NCBI GenBank assembly: GCA_000092065.1
Contig: CP000588.1
Source: Ostreococcus lucimarinus
Lineage: Eukaryota
DNA: 64,000 nt
Strand: one strand, 5' to 3'
Numbering within the stretch: the first letter of the stretch is position 1; each line of letters opens with the position of its first letter. Position numbers and translations under genes: made by a program. Of the stretch, positions 34,371-42,568 are shown piece after piece. The notes beneath the pieces were generated by a model. The model was not told where the DNA came from and ran no database searches. It saw only the letters and a program-made list of their open reading frames with translations.

Positions 34371-35963
34371 CTATTCTCGCTGACGCGGCGTGCATTTTAT
34401 GATGTCGTCGACGCGAATGATCATTTCAGCCGCTTCGGTGGCCGAAAGAAGGACTTGCTGCTTGACACGGAAGCACTCGACCACGCCACACTGTTGCATG
34501 TCACCGACTTCGCCCGTCAAGATGTTGATACCGGTGTTCTTCTTCCCCGCAGCGTGCGCGGCGCGCATTTGCGATACGAGCTCAGAACTATCCAAGCCGC
34601 CGTTGTCGCAGATGATGGTCGGGATAGCGCGCAAAGCCTTGGCAAAGCACTCCATCGCTAACGATCTCTTCCCTGGCGTTTTCGCTGCGAGCTCTTCCAC
34701 GGCTTTGGACATGATCATCTCCGAGCAACCGCCGCCGTAAATGACTCTGCTGTCCTTCACCGTCGACGTCAAGACGCACAGGGCGTCGTGCAACGAGCGT
34801 TCAGCCTCACCTAAGATATGCTCTGACGCCCCTCGAAGAACGATCGTACACGCCTCACCCTTGGCAACGCCGCTGAATCGAATCAAGCGATCCTCACCGA
34901 TCATTACCTCCTCAATCAAGTCGCAGGAGCCGAGCTGAACGTCCTCTGGGTTGTCAAACGTCGAGCAAATATCGCCACCCGTGACCAAGGCCAGGCGTTC
35001 GATGCCGTCAAAGTCGGCGTGTTCGATCGCAGCCACGCCCGCTTCGGTGAAGATTTGTTCGGGGTAGTTGTAAATCAATTGACGGTTGATGAAGCAGTTG
35101 ATGCCGTAGCCGATGATTTTTTCGCACTTGCGCTTCATCTTCTCGCGCTCCGCCTGTTCAATCTCCGCAACCTTGGTCATGGAGTCCACTCGCACGCGCG
35201 CACCGTAAATTTTAATTTTATCCGTATCCATGGGCGTGTTGGCGATCAAAATCTTCGCGTTTTCGATTCTCTTCGGTTGTCCGACGCCAAAACGCTTGTC
35301 CAAGATGAATCCTTCGTCTAAAAACGAATCCTTCAAGCTTCCACCCGGTTTCTGAATGATTTGAATCATCTCTAGGTCTCCTGACCCTTTCAATCGCAGC
35401 ACCGCATCCACAGCGAGCTTGGCGAAGTGTTCCTTGTCGTTCGTCAAGATTTTCGAACTCAGCGTAGTCTTCGCGATGTTGGTCAAGTCTTGCCTGAATC
35501 TCGCCTCGTCCCCGGCGTTATCGCTCGCCGCGCGCTCCAGCGCCGCCTTCGCCGCCTCGCACGCCTCTCTAAACCCTTGAATAATCGTCATCGGGTGCAC
35601 GTGTTGATTCACCAACTGTTCCGCCTGTCTCAAAAGTTCGCTCGCGAACACCACCACCGACGTCGTCCCGTCCCCGACCTCGTCGTCTTGCGCCTTTGAG
35701 ATGTCCACCAGCACCTTCGCCGCCGGGTTATCGACGTATATCGACTTCAAGATCGTCGCTCCATCGTTCGTCACCGTCACGTTCCGTCCTCTCTGCACGC
35801 TCTGCAGGATCTTATCCATCCCCTTCGGCCCGAGCGTTGACTTCACCAAGTCCCCGATCGCCATCGCGCCGACGAAGGATGCCAGGCGCGCGTGTTCGCC
35901 CTTTTCCTCGCTCGCGCCCTCGCGCAGGACCGACGCGTCGGCGTTTCCCGCCGCGGTCGCCAT
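34371..35963 (-). CDS. CCT2: T-complex protein 1 subunit beta (CCT2)
   Basis: [29 protein letters not shown]...[10 protein letters not shown]...NPAAKVLVD...[12 protein letters not shown] is near-identical in pattern to CCT-beta. Full length 530 aa; ATG at 35963. Confidence 0.95.
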
Positions 35964-36130
35964 CGCGTCTTCGTCTTCGTCGCCGTCTCGGTCTCGCGCG
36001 CGTCCCGTCCGTCGTCGTCTGCCGCGTCGCGCGCGGGGCGCGTCGTCAATCGAATCAATCGCGCAAAGCGACCGCGTCGACGACCGCGCGCGGGTTGACC
36101 CGACCGGCGAGTCGCCGCTCTATTCGTACT

Positions 36131-36156
36131 AGGGTTTAGGGTTTAGGTTATTTAGG
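36131..36156. promoter_or_regulatory. interstitial plant-type telomere repeat / telo-box-like element
   Basis: AGGGTTTAGGGTTTAGG is followed by the degenerate TTATTTAGG. This is AAACCCTAAACCCT on the CCT2 strand, about 170 bp upstream of the CCT2 ATG and about 350 bp upstream of the recombinase ATG. Confidence 0.6.
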
Positions 36157-36160
36157 TGAG

Positions 36161-36195
36161 ACGATCGAGCCGCATTCATTCATAGGCTCGATCGT
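36161..36195. other. perfect 11-bp inverted repeat (hairpin) with 13-nt loop
   Basis: ACGATCGAGCC (36161-36171) pairs with GGCTCGATCGT (36185-36195) around the loop gcattcattcata. It sits 4 nt downstream of the telomere-like repeat. Confidence 0.85.
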
Positions 36196-36506
36196 GGCCC
36201 GAAATACGACGCCCCCCGCGGGCGTCGTCGCGCGCGCGCGACGGCCGCGCGCGCGACGCGCCGACGCGTCGCCCGCGGGCGCGACATCGAACGACGCGAC
36301 GGGACGCGACCGGGCGCGACGGGACGACCGGCGAGCGCGTAAAGGCGAGCGAGATCGTCGACGCGTCGAGCGCGGACGTCGACGTCGGAAGACGCGACGC
36401 GACGCGACGCGAACGAAGCGATCGAGCGAACGATTCGCGTCGCGACGCATTTGACGATTCTTGTTCCCCCGGGACGCGCGAGGGGGGCGCGCAAGGGGAG
36501 AAAATC

Positions 36507-38195
36507 ATGAAGGAGGCGGCGAAGCGCGCGAAAACGACGGCGATGAAGGCGGCGAGACGACCGAGGAGCGCGGCGCGGGCGATGGCGGTGGCGGCGACGA
36601 TGGGGGGGGAGGGAGGGGGGGGGACGGAGCTGCGGGCGTTCGTGGCGGCGTGCGCGAACGCGCTGGGGCGAAGGGACGAGGACGTGGGGGCGAGGATCGC
36701 GGCGACGCTGGAGGCGAATTGGTTCACGACGCCGATGGATTTGGCGAGATTGAGCGTGGAGGAGGCGCGAGCGATGGCGGTGCCGATGAAACTGGTGGAT
36801 GAGTTTAAGCGCGCGCTGGACGGCGCGCGCGGGTTCGCGGCGAGCGGCGCGAGCGCGACGACGACGACGACGGAGAAAAACGACGAGGGAGAAACGGCGC
36901 TCGATTTAGGACTCGAGCCGTTGGCGTCGGAGACGGCGGCGACTACGATGAAGACGATGGTGTCGTCGAGCGGACGCATGGCGTTGAAGATGCGCACCGG
37001 TTTATCCGCCGAGTCGACGCGAGTGACGAGTCGACCTGTCGGATTACCGAATTATCGCATACCGTTGGAGGAATGCGGAAGCGATTTGAAGAAACAGTTC
37101 AAGGCTTTGCGCAAATTCCTTACCGTCCGTAGGCTTGGGCCTCAAGAATGCATTCTCGCTGGGGTGACGGCGGAAAAGTACGAAGACGTTTTGCGAGGCG
37201 CCTTGGGATGGTTGTGCGCGGAGAAAAACATGAAACCTTCGAAAGTCACGCTCCTCGACTTATTCCCGAGTATTGACGCGGAGAGTGCCAATGGAGCTTT
37301 TGAATACGTCACTTGGCTGAACGATGAGCGACAGACGTCGGCAAATTACGAGCTTCTCGTCACTCGCTCGTGCATCGCGGCGGTGAAATTCTTGTACGGC
37401 AATTTGAGCAAGGCGCAACCGGGCGAGGGCGAAGCGAAACCGTACCATGACTTGCCGGTGATGAAAGAATTACGTCGTATGGCGAAAGACGCTAAAGCTC
37501 GATCAGCCAAGGCGCCTAGCGTGAGCGATGAGCGTCTGAAATGGCTCGAATGGGATGAGTACTTGACGCTCGTGCAACGATTGAAGAGCGAGTGCACGGC
37601 GAAGAATTGTCTGGGACAATCTCGCTCGGCGAGCGCCGTGGCGTGGAGTGTGCAGAAGTATTTAATTTTTGGCGTTCTGTCGTGTGTGCCCGATCGTCAG
37701 CGAACTCTACGCGAGCTACGAGTCGGGAAGACGCTGTTCAAAGAGGGCGATAAGTGGGTCATTCGCCACAAAGAAACCGATTATAAAACGGGCAAGGACT
37801 ACGGGGTGCGACCACCGCTCGTAATCGCTCCGCATCTATATCCGACGCTCGAGACATTCATCGAAACGCACCGCAAAGAGCTCAATCCGAACCACGATTT
37901 CCTTTTCACTCGCAAGAATGGTGAGCAGTTTGACGGACAGGGGATTTATCGGCTCTTTACGACGACGGCGATGCGTCTCACCGGCAAGCGGACGAACCCG
38001 CACTTGATTCGAGACATGGTGGTGACGCACTTACGAGGGACGGACGCGTCCGAGCGACAGTTAGAGGCGCTAGCAATCTATATGGGTCACTCACTTCAGA
38101 TGCAAAAGTCGACGTACGACAGACGATCTGTCGAGCAAAAAGTTGCGCCGGCGGTGGATCTGTTAGATTCGCTCAACGCAAAGATGAGACTCTAG
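36507..38195 (+). CDS. tyrosine recombinase / integrase-family protein (Crypton-like), intronless, catalytic residues intact
   Basis: The C-terminal part is collinear with XerC/D-type catalytic domains. The matching segments are VPDRQRTLRELRVG (R397/R399), DYKTGKDYGVRPPLVI (K427/K430), NPHLIRDMVVTHL (H499, R502) and YMGHSLQMQKSTYD (H528, Y537). The upstream region resembles a SAM-like core-binding domain (ANYELLVTRSCIAAVKFLY). ATG at 36507. Confidence 0.75.
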   Translation: MKEAAKRAKTTAMKAARRPRSAARAMAVAATMGGEGGGGTELRAFVAACANALGRRDEDVGARIAATLEANWFTTPMDLARLSVEEARAMAVPMKLVDEFKRALDGARGFAASGASATTTTTEKNDEGETALDLGLEPLASETAATTMKTMVSSSGRMALKMRTGLSAESTRVTSRPVGLPNYRIPLEECGSDLKKQFKALRKFLTVRRLGPQECILAGVTAEKYEDVLRGALGWLCAEKNMKPSKVTLLDLFPSIDAESANGAFEYVTWLNDERQTSANYELLVTRSCIAAVKFLYGNLSKAQPGEGEAKPYHDLPVMKELRRMAKDAKARSAKAPSVSDERLKWLEWDEYLTLVQRLKSECTAKNCLGQSRSASAVAWSVQKYLIFGVLSCVPDRQRTLRELRVGKTLFKEGDKWVIRHKETDYKTGKDYGVRPPLVIAPHLYPTLETFIETHRKELNPNHDFLFTRKNGEQFDGQGIYRLFTTTAMRLTGKRTNPHLIRDMVVTHLRGTDASERQLEALAIYMGHSLQMQKSTYDRRSVEQKVAPAVDLLDSLNAKMRL

Positions 38196-38223
38196 ACTAT
38201 ACCTCGCTAATTCTACTCTTCTA

Positions 38224-39129
38224 CTAGCTACATGTGATTCCTAGGTTCCAAAAACGCAATTCTCCTGGCTGCTCCTGTTCTTCTTCGTCTTCGGACTCGT
38301 ACAAACACAACAGTTCGTGTAAATCATCACGCCAAGTGTACGCGCTCGAATACCACGAGTGCTTATCGGAACGACACCGCTTCCGAGGAAGCCGTCTCCG
38401 AGTCGATGAACGGTCATCACATCTACCGTCAGTATCGACTGGTCGATCGCTCGGGAGTTCGCGCGTCCACGCGTAGTCGCCGCAATTTTTGCACGTGCTT
38501 CGACAAAACGAGCGCAATGCGCGTTGTGTTTTCGTCGCATCCGACGCCATGAACGTGCGATACGCGGCGTTGAAACTCTTCGACACGCACGCGAGCGCGC
38601 ATCGAGTTCTATGATCATCGCACTTCCCCAAAATTTCAATGAGCAAGTCTTCGTGGAACACGTCCAAACTCCCGTTCCCGTCGCTCGGCTCCCGTCGCTT
38701 CCGCTGCGCGCGCGTCCACTCGATTTCGCACCGCTTCCAATCGCTCCTCAATTGTTTGTACTTCGTCCCAACCGACGCCCGCGCGCACAACGGCGACAAC
38801 TGCTCCAGAATATCCCTCACCAGCTTCACGCACAACGAGGACGCGAGCACGCTCCGCTCCGCCACCGCGAGCGCGTCCTCGACCATCGCCACCGCGCGCC
38901 TCACCGCCGCGAGCGCGCTCTCGAGCGCTTTTCCACTCGGTTTCCACGGCGTGCGCTTCACCCCTCGCGTCGTCGTCGTCGTCGTGCGCCGGTGACGATT
39001 TCCCACGAGCAACGCGCGCAACTCTGCGAGCGCCTGCACGCGCTCGCGCGGCGTCATCGACGGCGCGATCGCGGCGAGCACGCGCGCATCGATCACCTTC
39101 GCCCGTTCGTCGCCGTGCGCGGTCGTCAT
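38224..39129 (-). CDS. F-box-like protein
   Basis: The F-box-like segment is LDVFHEDLLIEILGKCDDHRTRCALACVSKSFNAAY, and the C-terminal part is Cys-rich. ATG at 39129. The stop is only 28 bp from the recombinase stop. Confidence 0.6.
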   Translation of the reverse strand: MTTAHGDERAKVIDARVLAAIAPSMTPRERVQALAELRALLVGNRHRRTTTTTTRGVKRTPWKPSGKALESALAAVRRAVAMVEDALAVAERSVLASSLCVKLVRDILEQLSPLCARASVGTKYKQLRSDWKRCEIEWTRAQRKRREPSDGNGSLDVFHEDLLIEILGKCDDHRTRCALACVSKSFNAAYRTFMASDATKTQRALRSFCRSTCKNCGDYAWTRELPSDRPVDTDGRCDDRSSTRRRLPRKRCRSDKHSWYSSAYTWRDDLHELLCLYESEDEEEQEQPGELRFWNLGITCS

Positions 39130-39193
39130 CGCGCCGCGCGACGCGACAGAGTGTCGTCACTCTGCGGCGCGTCCGTCCCGTCGCGCGTTCGCC

Positions 39194-40300
39194 ATGCGAC
39201 TCTCCGACGGCGTCGTCGACGCGCGGAGCGACACGGTGACGAAACCGACGGCGCGCATGAGGGAAGCGATGGCGCGCGCCGAGGTCGGGGACGACGTCCT
39301 CGGCGACGATCGCACGGTGAAGGCGCTCGAACGTAAAATGGCGGAGATGTTTGGATTCGAGGCGGCGGTGTTCACGCCGAGCGGAACCATGGCGAATTTG
39401 CTCGCCATCGCCACGTGGTGCGACGAGCGAGGGAGCGAAGCGATCATCGGAGATAAGTCGCACGTGCACCTGTACGAACAGGGCGGGATGTCGTCGCTGA
39501 TGGGGGTGCATTCGAGAACGCTCAAGAATCGCGAAGACGGGACGCTCGCGCTGGAGGATATACGAGCCGCGATACGCACCGTGAGCGACGATCACTTCCC
39601 AGTGACGAAGGTTGTGACGCTGGAGAACACGCAGAATAAGTGTGGGGGGAAGGTACTGCCGGTGGAGTACGTTCGGGAGGTTGGGGCGTTGTGCGCGGCG
39701 CACGGGGTGAAGTTGCACATGGACGGGGCGAGAATTTGGAACGCGTTGGCGGCGAGCATCGATCACGTTCGCATCGATCACATCTTACAAGGGTGTGATT
39801 CGGCGAGTATCTGCTTGAGCAAAGCCATCGGCGCCCCCGTTGGGAGCGTGTTACTCGGCGATGAGGCGTTTGTTCGAAAGGCGAAGCGGTTGCGCAAAGC
39901 GTTGGGCGGTTCGATGCGACAAGTCGGCGTCTTAGCCGCTGCGGCTTTAGAGGCGATCGATGAAGTATTCCCGAAGATAGCAGAAGATCACGAGCGCGCG
40001 AGGGCTTTCGCGAACGCGCTACAAGGCGCGACTGGTCTCGAATGCGCAACGCCGGAGTCGAACCTCGTTCTCGTGCGAAGCACCATTCCCGGCATCACTT
40101 CCGAGATGTTGATGCGGGAATTGGAGATGAGCCACGGTGTGTTGGTTTTACCAACGAATCAAGACACCATTCGCGTCGCTTTTCACCATCAAATCACGGA
40201 TGCGGGCGTTGAACGTCTGGTCAGTGGCTTTCGTGAAAGCGTGCTCGAACTCGCTCGCGACCCAAAGCTGAACGAAATTATGATGTCTGACGGTATGTAA
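39194..40300 (+). CDS. low-specificity L-threonine aldolase (PLP-dependent)
   Basis: VDARSDTVTKPT..MREAM..AEVGDDVLGDD.TV..LE, FTPSGTMANL, HMDGARIWNA and SICLSKAIGAPVGS (PLP Lys) are all present. Total 368 aa. Confidence 0.9.
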   Translation: MRLSDGVVDARSDTVTKPTARMREAMARAEVGDDVLGDDRTVKALERKMAEMFGFEAAVFTPSGTMANLLAIATWCDERGSEAIIGDKSHVHLYEQGGMSSLMGVHSRTLKNREDGTLALEDIRAAIRTVSDDHFPVTKVVTLENTQNKCGGKVLPVEYVREVGALCAAHGVKLHMDGARIWNALAASIDHVRIDHILQGCDSASICLSKAIGAPVGSVLLGDEAFVRKAKRLRKALGGSMRQVGVLAAAALEAIDEVFPKIAEDHERARAFANALQGATGLECATPESNLVLVRSTIPGITSEMLMRELEMSHGVLVLPTNQDTIRVAFHHQITDAGVERLVSGFRESVLELARDPKLNEIMMSDGM

Positions 40301-40342: not shown

Positions 40343-42568
40343 CTATGGGAAGTATCGCGTCGGCGTGGGTTTGGGTTTGGCCGGCGCTTGTTTGCTCTTC
40401 GGCGTCCACTCGCATGCGCTCGGCTCTGCCGCGTGCGCCTTCTTCTTTCCACCGGGCTTCCACTCGCACGCGGATCCCTGTGCGACGGCTCCATGCGCCG
40501 CCTTATGCTCGGCACGGTGCTTGATCTGCGTCTCGAGTGCCACACGGACGTTTTCATCCAAAACATGAGCCATTTTGCACATCTTCAGGAGCTCGTACGG
40601 TTCATCTTCAATCGGTCGATCGCGGTCCGCCGCAACCACGCATATGAAACCAAAAGGCTCCGTCGTGCCTGCCTTGCACCGAAGCTGGTGCGTATCACCC
40701 GGTGCGGTATACCCGACGTCACCCACCCCAAGATGGTAAGACTCCAGACCGAGCTGGATTTCGCCTTCCCCTCGAAGCACTACGACGACGTGTTCGTGTT
40801 GGTGGTGCTCGAGCGTCGTCCATCCACCCGGGGCAACTTCAAAGTAACGCACGTGGAAAACTGGACTCTCTCCTCGCTTTCCGATGAGTTCGATGCGTGA
40901 ACACTCCTTGAAACTCGCCCCATCCATCTTGTACATTTCCTGCGGTACGCGCTCCCACTGAAACTCTCCCTTCTTTCTATTGAGTACCTTGCTATGATTT
41001 CCGTCTAGCGGCCCCTCAGACGCGTGTTTAGTTCCATTTCTCTTCGCCTCGGCGTCCATCAGGCTCTTCACGAGCGTCGTCAGCTCGTCAACCTTAGACT
41101 CGAGCGCATAATTCTTCTCTTTAAGCGCGCTCATTTGAGCAACGGCTTCAGGGTCAAGGCCCACCGTCCACGGCGTCGACGGCGGCGCAGCCGGATACGT
41201 GCCGTGCGGAGTCAGAGGGTATGGGCTATGTGCACTCGAACTCTCGTCTACGAGTTTCAATCTGGGTCGCATGCCGCTTCCCGGGGTGAAAAGTCCGTTG
41301 CTGTAGTGCGTTGGCACGTGATAGCTGCCAGGTTGTGATTCTCGAGGCCCGTAGATGTCGGTGCGACCCGCCATAGTCAGGATGTGCCTCGCATTCGCCG
41401 TCAAGTCCGAGCTATGGCTGTATAGTGATCCACCGACGAGGAGTAAAACATCTTGACCGTACGTCTCCATCATCACTTTAACCTTGTCGAGCGTCATGCC
41501 GCCGCCCGGACTCGGTAAGATTGACGGGTGGTGCGCCAAGACTCGCCTGGCACCGTGAACAATGTCTTTGCACTCTTCAACACTGAAGCCAAACCGCCCG
41601 CCAAAGTTTGGGAAAATAGTCGCATCTGCACCAGCCAATCGCGGTAGCAACCCGAGCAGGACGCCATGAGCAAATCCGCGAATGGTGTTTTGGCTTCCGC
41701 CGCCGAGCATGGCGCCGAGAATAGCGGGGTGCGCGATGATGGGAAGCCCAAAATCGGGATCTTCTGCCAGCGCTCGCATGCTATCCAAACCCGTGATTCC
41801 TGGAATCATCAACACCGCCCCAGCACCCGCGGCCTTGGCGAACTTGGCGCGCTGTACGACCAAGTGCGCCGGAGCGTTGATGCACGGCGCGTAGATGCAC
41901 CGCCGTCCCGTCTCCGCGTTCGCCCGTTTCACCGCCGCCGCACACGCCCGCACGCGCTCCTCATACGGGGCGTACCGTTGATTCGCCAATCCATGATCAT
42001 CCTTTATGATGTCAATTCCCCCCTTCGCGAACGCGTACGCCATTTCCGCAAGTTTCTCGCTCGGCGTCCCCATCGGCTTGAGCGCCGTCATCACAATGGG
42101 TCCGCGTTCGACCCCGAGCAATTTCCTCAGCCCCTTCGCCCCGAACCTCGCTCCCGCGAACTTCCCTAGCATCGCATCCGAAAGTTCCACGTCTCGCACC
42201 ATCACCCGTTCCTTTATGCTCGTGTTCCCGAAGATGACGTTCACCAGCTGCGGCAACTCGCCGCCCGCGCAGTCGTCGGCGTACCGCACCTTGGCCCTGT
42301 ACACGTCCCCACTCGCGCCTTTCCCGCGCGCGTCCACCCCCGAAGCGCACCGCTCGATCGACACGCATTTTCCCACGACGTGCTCGTTGATCCACGTCCC
42401 CGGCGGGACGAGCGCTTCGGGTAACTCGACGGTTTGCTCGAGACACAGCGCGTCGACGATCTGTCGCGCCTCCGCGTTCGACGTCGCGTCGACGTCGTAC
42501 GTGACGTGAAAGCACGACGACGCGCCGTCGCGCGTTAACGAAGGCGTCGCCGGGGCGTCGCGTGGCAT
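40343..42568 (-). CDS. form IV RuBisCO-like protein fused to a coiled-coil linker, a cupin domain and a Lys-rich tail
   Basis: RLP motifs: ALKPMGTPSEKLAEMAYAFAKGGIDIIKDDHGL, IIAHPAILG, PSPGGGMTL and LLVGGSLYSH. Cupin: YFEVAPGGWTTLEHHQHEHVVVVLRGEG...GDVGYTAPGDTHQL. The ORF is a single uninterrupted run of 741 codons from ATG 42568. Confidence 0.85.
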   Translation of the reverse strand: MPRDAPATPSLTRDGASSCFHVTYDVDATSNAEARQIVDALCLEQTVELPEALVPPGTWINEHVVGKCVSIERCASGVDARGKGASGDVYRAKVRYADDCAGGELPQLVNVIFGNTSIKERVMVRDVELSDAMLGKFAGARFGAKGLRKLLGVERGPIVMTALKPMGTPSEKLAEMAYAFAKGGIDIIKDDHGLANQRYAPYEERVRACAAAVKRANAETGRRCIYAPCINAPAHLVVQRAKFAKAAGAGAVLMIPGITGLDSMRALAEDPDFGLPIIAHPAILGAMLGGGSQNTIRGFAHGVLLGLLPRLAGADATIFPNFGGRFGFSVEECKDIVHGARRVLAHHPSILPSPGGGMTLDKVKVMMETYGQDVLLLVGGSLYSHSSDLTANARHILTMAGRTDIYGPRESQPGSYHVPTHYSNGLFTPGSGMRPRLKLVDESSSAHSPYPLTPHGTYPAAPPSTPWTVGLDPEAVAQMSALKEKNYALESKVDELTTLVKSLMDAEAKRNGTKHASEGPLDGNHSKVLNRKKGEFQWERVPQEMYKMDGASFKECSRIELIGKRGESPVFHVRYFEVAPGGWTTLEHHQHEHVVVVLRGEGEIQLGLESYHLGVGDVGYTAPGDTHQLRCKAGTTEPFGFICVVAADRDRPIEDEPYELLKMCKMAHVLDENVRVALETQIKHRAEHKAAHGAVAQGSACEWKPGGKKKAHAAEPSACEWTPKSKQAPAKPKPTPTRYFP

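Follow-up and report, generated by a model that had tools for sequence, protein, structure and literature searches.

Does a tyrosine recombinase gene lodged between housekeeping genes on a nuclear chromosome of a chlorophyte belong to a mobile element or to its host? The question is raised by a 64-kb stretch of the Ostreococcus lucimarinus genome (GenBank contig CP000588.1; hereafter, the window, that is, the whole 64,000-nucleotide stretch that was analyzed), in which an intronless open reading frame (ORF) at positions 36507 to 38195 encodes a protein of 562 amino acids (aa) with a C-terminal tyrosine recombinase domain. To our knowledge, the tyrosine recombinases of eukaryotic nuclei are either components of mobile or selfish elements (Cryptons, DIRS/Ngaro, Starships, the 2-micron Flp) or catalytically dead, domesticated remnants. 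The original prediction for this locus left two readings, a solo Crypton-like element or a host-recruited site-specific recombinase.

The second reading gains from the comparative data, namely conserved synteny, purifying selection, apparently one ortholog per named genome and a host-like tree. We are confident that the ORF is a host gene with an intact active site and not a transposon; judging from sequence comparison, it probably is a vertically inherited, single-copy nuclear gene for an active tyrosine recombinase. Together with its homologs, it apparently represents a distinct, undescribed family of conserved cellular eukaryotic tyrosine recombinases with a sterile alpha motif (SAM) domain. 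The breadth of this family, its cyanobacterial sister group, the SAM domain and the targeting-like N-termini go beyond what the original prediction had covered.

Domain architecture and catalytic residues

The protein is organized as follows.

36507..38195, forward strand: intronless ORF of the SAM-domain tyrosine recombinase, in all probability a host gene; 562 aa plus stop codon, with no interruption
36507..36617, forward strand: N-terminal extension, aa 1-37; basic (nine Arg or Lys, one acidic residue), fast-evolving, pLDDT below 65, starting at a predicted start codon
36618..36842, forward strand: SAM-fold domain, aa 38-112, found in eukaryotic members only
36843..37001, forward strand: disordered low-complexity linker, aa 113-165; pLDDT 31-37, variable in length and unalignable across orthologs, dN/dS 0.4-0.67
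37002..37622, forward strand: conserved pre-core segment (RVT...Y.L..E) and helical core-binding domain, aa 166-372, present also in cyanobacterial relatives
37623..38192, forward strand: tyrosine recombinase catalytic domain, aa 373-562

The C-terminal integrase-type catalytic domain recognized in the original prediction is recovered in Pfam, PHROG, family-profile, AlphaFold2 and Foldseek comparisons. The Pfam Phage_integrase profile (PF00589) matches aa 398-529 of the O. lucimarinus protein with an E-value of 6.5e-6 and 26.5 bits (gathering cut-off 27.1), and is matched at E<=0.1 by 13 of 19 family members, with 40.5 bits for the cyanobacterial member P0354; the PHROG integrase profile phrog_1 matches aa 417-557 (E=2.7e-5). 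When the single sequence was used to search the PDB sequences, only a chance match was obtained, and family profiles were needed. The AlphaFold2 model, built with 19 homologs, has a mean pLDDT of 79.7, with values above 90 across most of aa 180-520, and in Foldseek comparison the top ranks are taken by XerA, Cre and XerH (probability 1.0, E-values down to 2.8e-6); the alignments extend over 370-400 columns and thus cover both the core-binding and the catalytic domains. Hence both the profile-HMM searches, in which integrase profiles match, and the structure prediction, which yields a fold of the Cre/Xer type, speak for the assignment: the protein shares the catalytic-domain fold of Cre, XerD and lambda Int and carries a helical core-binding domain N-terminal to it. 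It clusters with UniRef100_A0A7R9T5V2, a 'Tyr recombinase domain-containing protein' from Ostreococcus sp. 'lucimarinus'.

The catalytic residues were placed by aligning family profiles to solved recombinases and by hhalign comparison with Escherichia coli XerD; the XerD sequence used in the latter is consistent with the PDB segment from the profile alignment. Two multiple alignments (A1 and A2) spanning chlorophytes, diatoms, oomycetes, amoebozoans, one choanoflagellate and cyanobacteria were used to assess conservation, and the following positions emerged.

37695..37703, forward strand: R397-Q-R399 of the motif PDRQRT, with the candidate Arg-I; neither arginine varies in A1 or A2, cyanobacterial proteins included
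37785..37787, forward strand: K427 of the motif D[YF]KTG, putative catalytic lysine of the beta-hairpin; no variation in either A1 or A2
38001..38012, forward strand: HxxR motif, H499-L-I-R502, aligned with H244/R247 of XerD and with the HxxR of 4a8e and XerH; invariant in A2
38088..38117, forward strand: H528 ... Y537, second histidine and nucleophilic tyrosine, within GHSLQMQKSTY and ahead of DRR; aligned with H270/Y279 of XerD and with GHS...QIY of 4a8e

In the predicted structure, the candidate Arg-I (R397 or R399) sits in a short helix that follows a long helix, and K427 is part of the loop that follows two predicted strands (410-413 and 416-419). The original prediction had left the hairpin lysine between K427 and K430; the invariant K427 stands, and K430, which is replaced by G, R, A, D or N in relatives, does not. 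Its placement of HxxR at H499/R502 and of the second histidine and the nucleophile at H528 and Y537, nine residues apart as in XerD, agrees with the XerD columns. None of these four residues varies in A2; in A1, where one truncated sequence lacks them, their conservation is 90% or higher. Thus, the full catalytic set is retained in every complete sequence across three eukaryotic supergroups, and the retention of R, K, HxxR, H and Y would be hard to explain without selection for catalysis; activity itself is a prediction.

The catalytic set bears directly on the possibility that the gene encodes a domesticated protein that keeps the recombinase fold without recombination and serves as a sequence-specific DNA-binding or scaffolding factor, comparable to the Crypton-derived DUF3504 proteins (ZMYM, QRICH1, KCTD1) or yeast Ndc10. 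Such a protein would likewise be encoded by a host gene under purifying selection, and domestication of tyrosine recombinases is documented (PMC3212892). However, the known domesticated Crypton derivatives have lost catalytic residues (PMC3212892), whereas here the set is kept from cyanobacteria to choanoflagellates, and there is no Pfam match to DUF3504, so that we consider this alternative improbable.

Genomic context and selective pressure

The order of genes around the recombinase, namely DAGAT, CCT2 (divergent), recombinase, F-box (convergent), threonine aldolase, a RuBisCO-like/cupin fusion and DCP2, is identical in the loci L001, L002, L012 and L013. When the interval between CCT2 and the F-box gene was compared across the four Ostreococcus lineages, as the original prediction had proposed, the gene was present throughout and no presence/absence polymorphism was seen. 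The orthologs on four Ostreococcus-type contigs are about 100% (L012, same species), 98%, 78% and 76% identical to the O. lucimarinus protein over 562 aligned residues. Beyond Ostreococcus, a 61%-identity relative on low-GC, Mamiellales-like contigs has its recombinase gene a few genes away from the same Nexin-Arf-Med10-CCT block, and an Hpt gene adjoins the recombinase both in this relative and in a 44%-identity, high-GC, Mamiellales-like one.

The gene is under purifying selection like that on neighboring enzyme genes. In comparisons of the same species pairs, pN/pS is 0.24-0.27 for the recombinase, 0.25-0.29 for threonine aldolase and 0.26 for DAGAT; the corresponding values are 0.07-0.08 for CCT2 and 0.72-0.75 for the F-box gene. 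When the recombinase is compared with its 98%-identity relative, the overall dN/dS ratio (Nei-Gojobori) is 0.135; for the core-binding and catalytic regions, the values are 0.04-0.08 in this comparison and 0.03-0.07 in that with the 78%-identity relative. The first 37 codons have dN/dS above 1 against the more distant Ostreococcus orthologs (74-77% identity).

These data leave little room for a solo Crypton-like or other tyrosine recombinase element inserted between CCT2 and the F-box gene. The absence of introns would fit such an element, as would the fact that Pfam shows no other recognizable cellular domain in the protein, and Cryptons may be low-copy and lack obvious termini (PMC3212892). 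Nevertheless, the gene occupies the same position in four Ostreococcus lineages down to 74% protein identity, with synonymous divergence saturated; its evolutionary rate is that of the neighboring enzymes; and its phylogeny tracks the hosts (see below). No significant terminal or target-site repeats were detected in 35500-39500, where only low-complexity, GC-rich chance repeats occur, and neither a second copy nor a fragment was found in the 64-kb window by tblastn and blastn with the gene and its 600-bp flanks. The search for copy number and element ends, which had been suggested as a test for a mobile element, came out against one, with one copy in the window and no defined ends. Among protein domains associated with elements of this type, GCR1_C is typical of CryptonF, DUF3504 of CryptonA, and DUF3435 of fungal Crypton-like elements and Starship captains; a Pfam scan of the O. 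lucimarinus protein and 18 relatives detected PF00589 only, along with three isolated chance-level matches, and none of these three domains. Taken together, the conserved synteny, the lack of repeats, additional copies in the window, Crypton-linked domains and insertion polymorphism, and the host-congruent tree largely refute the Crypton-like reading, which we regard as very improbable.

A retroelement of the DIRS/Ngaro/PAT type was rejected as well: the neighbors are CCT2, the F-box gene, threonine aldolase and DAGAT, there are no terminal repeats, and no reverse transcriptase or RNase H ORF was found in the window, as the original prediction had noted for both the repeats and the ORF. With respect to an origin from giant viruses or virophages, the family patterns matched 224 times in IMG/VR, and none of these matches is a confirmed relative.

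Phyletic distribution and phylogeny of the family

A search for homologs among 5.8 billion proteins yielded 164 matches, and 427 more distantly sampled ones were obtained at E<=1e-30 when a profile was run against 1.84 billion cluster representatives; taxon names come from lists of the best 120 matches and cover part of the matches. The chlorophyte members come from Ostreococcus, Cymbomonas, Tetraselmis, Coccomyxa, Trebouxia, Elliptochloris, Botryococcus, Chlorella, Micractinium, Parachlorella, Nannochloris, Chlamydomonas, Volvox, Tetradesmus, Raphidocelis, Monoraphidium and Chromochloris. Further homologs are present in raphid pennate diatoms (Fistulifera, Seminavis, Mayamaea, Cylindrotheca), saprolegnian oomycetes (Saprolegnia, Achlya, Thraustotheca and two Aphanomyces species), amoebozoans (Acanthamoeba, Balamuthia, Dermamoeba) and the choanoflagellate Salpingoeca urceolata. 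Among the matches listed, there is apparently one family protein per named genome. Outside Ostreococcus, identity to the O. lucimarinus protein in the multiple alignments is 37-55%. The sequences from Tetraselmis, Dermamoeba and Salpingoeca are derived from transcripts, indicating that the gene is expressed in these species.

In databases, the proteins are named 'hypothetical protein', 'integrase' or 'Tyr recombinase domain-containing protein', and a search of the full-text literature, locus tags included, found no published description of the family. The text of the Acanthamoeba mitochondrial proteome paper (PMC13632651) does not mention a recombinase.

In a bootstrapped neighbor-joining (NJ) tree constructed from 464 well-occupied columns, all eukaryotes, Mamiellales, oomycetes and diatoms are each recovered with 100% support, followed by stramenopiles (92%), core chlorophytes (87%), Amoebozoa (83%) and Chlorophyta (77%). 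The gene tree thus tracks the organismal tree, suggesting old vertical inheritance as opposed to a horizontally moving element. The distribution over the best 120 matches listed further suggests repeated loss of the gene among eukaryotes.

Two sets of database entries deserve separate mention. P0100 (WP_348760869.1), assigned to 'uncultured Salinisphaera sp.' on a 25-kb contig of a gammaproteobacterial metagenome-assembled genome, is 59% identical to the O. lucimarinus recombinase and carries a eukaryotic Sec20 Pfam domain; most likely, the contig is Mamiellales-like eukaryotic DNA mis-binned into a bacterial genome. In P0292 (Chlorella sorokiniana, 1058 aa) and P0297 (Micractinium conductrix, 812 aa), the recombinase is joined to a saccharopine dehydrogenase domain. 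These are probably merged models of neighboring genes, which would imply conserved synteny in two genera of Chlorellaceae, a true fusion being the other possibility.

Cyanobacterial relatives

The sole prokaryotic relatives found in the protein search are uncharacterized 'site-specific integrases' of 570-583 aa from filamentous cyanobacteria (Microcoleus, Kamptonema, Nostoc, Calothrix, Hassallia, Coleofasciculus, Aulosira, Tolypothrix), and a pattern-plus-tblastn scan of one genome from each of 185,579 bacterial and archaeal species, whose sensitivity is limited by the patterns, again retrieved filamentous cyanobacteria only. These integrases are 32-37% identical to the O. lucimarinus protein over about 400 aa that encompass the pre-core segment and the core-binding and catalytic domains, and share with the eukaryotic proteins the motifs PDR.RT, D[YF]KTG, PH[LM][IV]RD and [GA]HS..Q...YDRR. 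Their N-terminal region of about 150 aa is unrelated and contains neither a SAM domain nor a targeting-like extension. In the NJ tree, they form the sister clade of the eukaryotic proteins.

The cyanobacterial genes reside near partition and replication genes, in contrast to the nuclear, chromosomal gene of Ostreococcus. Relatives are encoded on the completely sequenced plasmids of Nostoc sp. HK-01 (plasmid6, BBD63617.1), Aulosira laxa (plasmid4, BAZ78649.1) and Nostoc sp. C057, and others are found on contigs that bear genes of plasmid type (AAA_25 helicase, actin-like partition protein, ParA, D5-type primase). In 4 of 4 cyanobacterial loci, a single copy of the palindrome GT[C/G]ATAA[A/G]TA-N10-11-TATTTAT[G/C]AC lies 170-330 bp upstream of the gene, at the following positions.

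L008, 5088-5111: cyanobacterial palindrome
L009, 9829-9852: cyanobacterial palindrome
L010, 7668-7692: cyanobacterial palindrome
L011, 7675-7699: cyanobacterial palindrome

Between Microcoleus and Nostoc/Aulosira, a C-to-G change in the palindrome is mirrored in both arms, and a third half-site (TGT[G/C]ATAAAT) is located near the start codon. The palindrome looks like a candidate recombination core site or an operator. It is absent from the eukaryotic loci (0 of 10). An invariant terminator-like hairpin (GCCGGGG...CCCCGGCTTTTTT) is also found just upstream in the cyanobacterial loci.

Since the only prokaryotic relatives found are cyanobacterial, several of them plasmid-borne, a recent horizontal transfer from cyanobacteria, or contamination of the assembly, has to be considered. 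Both are extremely improbable: identity to the cyanobacterial proteins is low, the eukaryotic proteins form one fully supported clade with the structure of the species tree inside it, and the genes lie on long eukaryotic contigs, among eukaryotic neighbors and at host-like GC content. What these observations refute is a transfer of recent date; an ancient one from a cyanobacterial plasmid-like source is possible and compatible with a host gene.

N-terminal SAM domain and putative targeting sequences

The segment aa 38-112 is predicted as a confident five-helix bundle (pLDDT 83.7 when modeled as a separate domain). Pfam gave no match for the isolated N-terminal domain of the O. lucimarinus protein; the SAM assignment comes from structure comparison, where the Foldseek list is dominated by SAM domains with no single match significant, and from the homolog P0291, in which Pfam SAM_1 and SAM_2 are above threshold at the aligned position.

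An extension of 15-68 aa precedes the SAM domain in 13 of 23 gene models. These extensions contain 1.1% acidic residues, compared with 12.4% in the rest of the protein, along with 14.7% Arg/Lys and 19% Ser/Thr. All five Saprolegniales N-termini, such as MLRTASRLARRRSPWQPTRFLS, are acid-free and Arg-rich and end in R-x-[FL]-S. An ending of this type fits the R-3 motif of the matrix-processing peptidase, a hallmark of the classical mitochondrial presequence, and the Saprolegniales N-termini look like presequences of this kind; the chlorophyte extensions look like transit peptides or presequences. The N-terminus of the Cylindrotheca protein (...STAAFLTP) recalls the ASAFAP plastid motif. In the O. 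lucimarinus protein, aa 1-37 possibly constitute an organelle-targeting peptide. On these features of the N-termini, the case for import of the recombinase into organelles is evenly balanced.

The start of the gene is placed differently by metagenome gene callers, which put the starts of orthologs 60-75 codons upstream in GC-rich intergenic sequence (8001-9911 in L012, 8001-9869 in L013), giving products of 636 and 622 aa with Arg-rich N-termini. In L013, no more than about 12 aa precede the SAM domain if translation starts at its nearest in-frame ATG.

The alternative location is the nucleus, where an active recombinase would work on nuclear DNA; possible roles include programmed inversion or excision, a mating-type or life-cycle switch, handling of rDNA or extrachromosomal circles, and excision or control of integrated viral or mobile DNA. 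The intact catalytic set is equally expected there, SAM domains are common in nuclear chromatin and signaling proteins, several gene models have no presequence-like extension, and the basic N-terminus of the O. lucimarinus protein could just as well be a nuclear localization signal. What makes this location unlikely is the textbook mitochondrial appearance of 5 of 5 oomycete N-termini, the scarcity of acidic residues in the extensions across 13 lineages, the lack, in all eukaryotic loci examined, of any conserved repeat or candidate site close to the gene, and the lack of relatives among the IMG/VR viral contigs.

Possible function

If the enzyme acts in the manner of its structural neighbors, two to four protomers would bind inverted half-sites of a specific DNA site, as Cre or Xer, and the SAM domain may aid protomer assembly through oligomerization or synapsis. 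Y537 would then attack the scissile phosphate, producing a 3'-phosphotyrosyl link, and strand pairs would be exchanged via a Holliday-junction intermediate. Less firmly, the substrate could be organelle DNA, and the task either the resolution of genome multimers or inversion (isomerization) at a fixed site.

Some of the hosts, namely the amoebae, the oomycetes and the choanoflagellate, have no plastids, which leaves the mitochondrion as the one DNA-containing organelle common to all. Combined with the presequence-like N-termini, this makes the mitochondrial genome the simplest candidate for a shared substrate; in diatoms or other algae, the enzyme may also act on plastid DNA. The plasmid context of the cyanobacterial sister group suggests multimer resolution or site-specific inversion, by analogy to Cre/loxP on plasmid P1 and to the XerCD/dif system of bacterial chromosomes; the analogy makes a role in multimer resolution a tentative suggestion. 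Equally tentative is the composite proposal of an organelle-imported recombinase that belongs to an ancient mitochondrial (in some algae, plastid) genome-maintenance system and, as a counterpart of Xer/dif or Cre/lox, would resolve multimers or flip segments.

Several observations weigh against a vertically inherited, active and possibly imported recombinase. With respect to enzymatic activity, the O. lucimarinus protein falls 0.6 bits short of the Pfam gathering cut-off for PF00589; Arg-I and the lysine are assigned by invariance and not by residue-level superposition, as the sequence alignments to solved enzymes stop short of them; and we know of no target site in any eukaryote. With respect to inheritance, no land plant, animal, fungus, Phytophthora, Phaeodactylum or Thalassiosira is among the matches named from the best 120 listed, and with such a patchy distribution many losses must be assumed; furthermore, Amorphea (Amoebozoa and the choanoflagellate) are not recovered in the tree (6-14%), NJ being a simple distance method. 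With respect to import, the diatom N-termini resemble signal peptides and not mitochondrial presequences, so that a single common compartment is not established. About 8 of the 23 gene models, that of Acanthamoeba among them, have no extension and begin at the SAM domain or close to it; these models may be truncated, or the proteins may truly lack an extension. The Ostreococcus extension, for its part, is short and poorly conserved, and follows from a predicted start codon.

Neighboring genes and the 5' flank

The local features listed in the original prediction are all present: a stop codon close to a convergent gene, CCT2 upstream, and a telomere-type repeat and a hairpin in the 5' flank. 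A distance of 28 bp separates the recombinase stop codon from the end of the convergent ORF, which occupies 38224-39129 on the reverse strand. For this ORF, the convergent position holds; its identification as an F-box gene is borne out in part, with a weak F-box match here (18.8 bits, cut-off 20.5) and a recorded one in the L013 ortholog. The F-box-like neighbor evolves very fast between Ostreococcus lineages (31-34% protein identity, pN/pS 0.72-0.75); in the same lineages, the recombinase is 76-78% identical.

The divergent upstream gene is CCT2 (TIGR02341, 899 bits), separated from the recombinase by a 543-bp intergenic region. Within this region, a telomere-like (TTTAGGG)2 repeat, TAGGGTTTAGGGTTTAGG, at 36130-36158 is followed by a hairpin at 36161-36195 with a perfect 11-bp stem and a 13-nt loop (ACGATCGAGCC...GGCTCGATCGT). 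The only relative with which this region can be aligned is the 98%-identity one, in which the repeat and the hairpin are decayed and partly retained. A regulatory or recombination role for these elements was rejected because they are poorly conserved and show no visible tie to the recombinase; they look like ordinary promoter-region features, and the repeat may be a promoter element of the telo-box type.

Farther downstream, the ORF at 40343-42568 (reverse strand) encodes a 741-aa protein in which a RuBisCO-large-subunit-like domain is fused to a C-terminal Cupin_2 domain. Its best match is the MtnW-type diketo-methylthiopentyl-phosphate enolase (202 bits, cut-off 409), and the fusion recurs in L002, L012 and L013. 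The protein may be a fused enzyme of methionine salvage.

Comparison with known recombination systems

A single-copy, syntenic and strongly constrained gene with a full catalytic set implies a conserved cellular DNA-rearrangement reaction that is so far undescribed. If the enzyme is indeed imported, it would explain how the circular-mapping organelle genomes of many protists handle multimers or inversion isomers, and a plasmid-derived component would be added to the machinery that maintains organelle DNA. The family lends itself to experiments, since Ostreococcus tauri, Chlamydomonas, diatoms and Acanthamoeba are all transformable, and a eukaryote-adapted recombinase could be of interest for genome engineering.

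Among characterized systems, the likely mechanistic model is provided by Xer and Cre (archaeal XerA/4a8e, XerH, XerD, Cre), with which the family shares the HxxR, His and Tyr columns. The O. lucimarinus protein differs from them in being twice as long, with an additional SAM domain and linker, and in being eukaryotic and nuclear-encoded. Orthology to XerC, XerD or XerA was rejected: the NCBIfam equivalog scores are in the range of 12-32 bits, compared with cut-offs of 220-335 (XerA, 17.6 bits against 220 for the O. lucimarinus protein; XerC, 23-32 against 335, and XerD, 15 against 330, for relatives). We know of no dif-like site or FtsK partner for the protein.

Cryptons and their domesticated derivatives (DUF3504 genes; Ndc10, Gcr1) also are nuclear tyrosine recombinase folds of eukaryotes, and the domesticated forms, too, are syntenic (PMC3212892). 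The Cryptons themselves (CryptonF, S, A and I) are repeated, often have terminal direct repeats of 5-6 bp, carry GCR1_C or other domains, and show a patchy phylogeny that is incongruent with that of their hosts (PMC3212892). The Ostreococcus gene, by contrast, is single-copy in the window, lacks repeats and Crypton domains, and has its catalytic set intact.

A precedent for a link to algal organelle genomes, compared here by description only, comes from organelle-encoded tyrosine recombinases, namely the plastid tyrC of Heterosigma akashiwo and genes on the mitochondrial DNA of Prototheca wickerhamii and Chaetosphaeridium globosum (PMC2410131). These proteins retain R-H-R-Y, are of Xer size (about 300 aa) and of sporadic occurrence attributed to lateral transfer, and have been proposed to act on organelle DNA in an Xer-like manner (PMC2410131). 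In contrast, the recombinase of O. lucimarinus is 562 aa long, nuclear-encoded, equipped with a SAM domain and broadly conserved.

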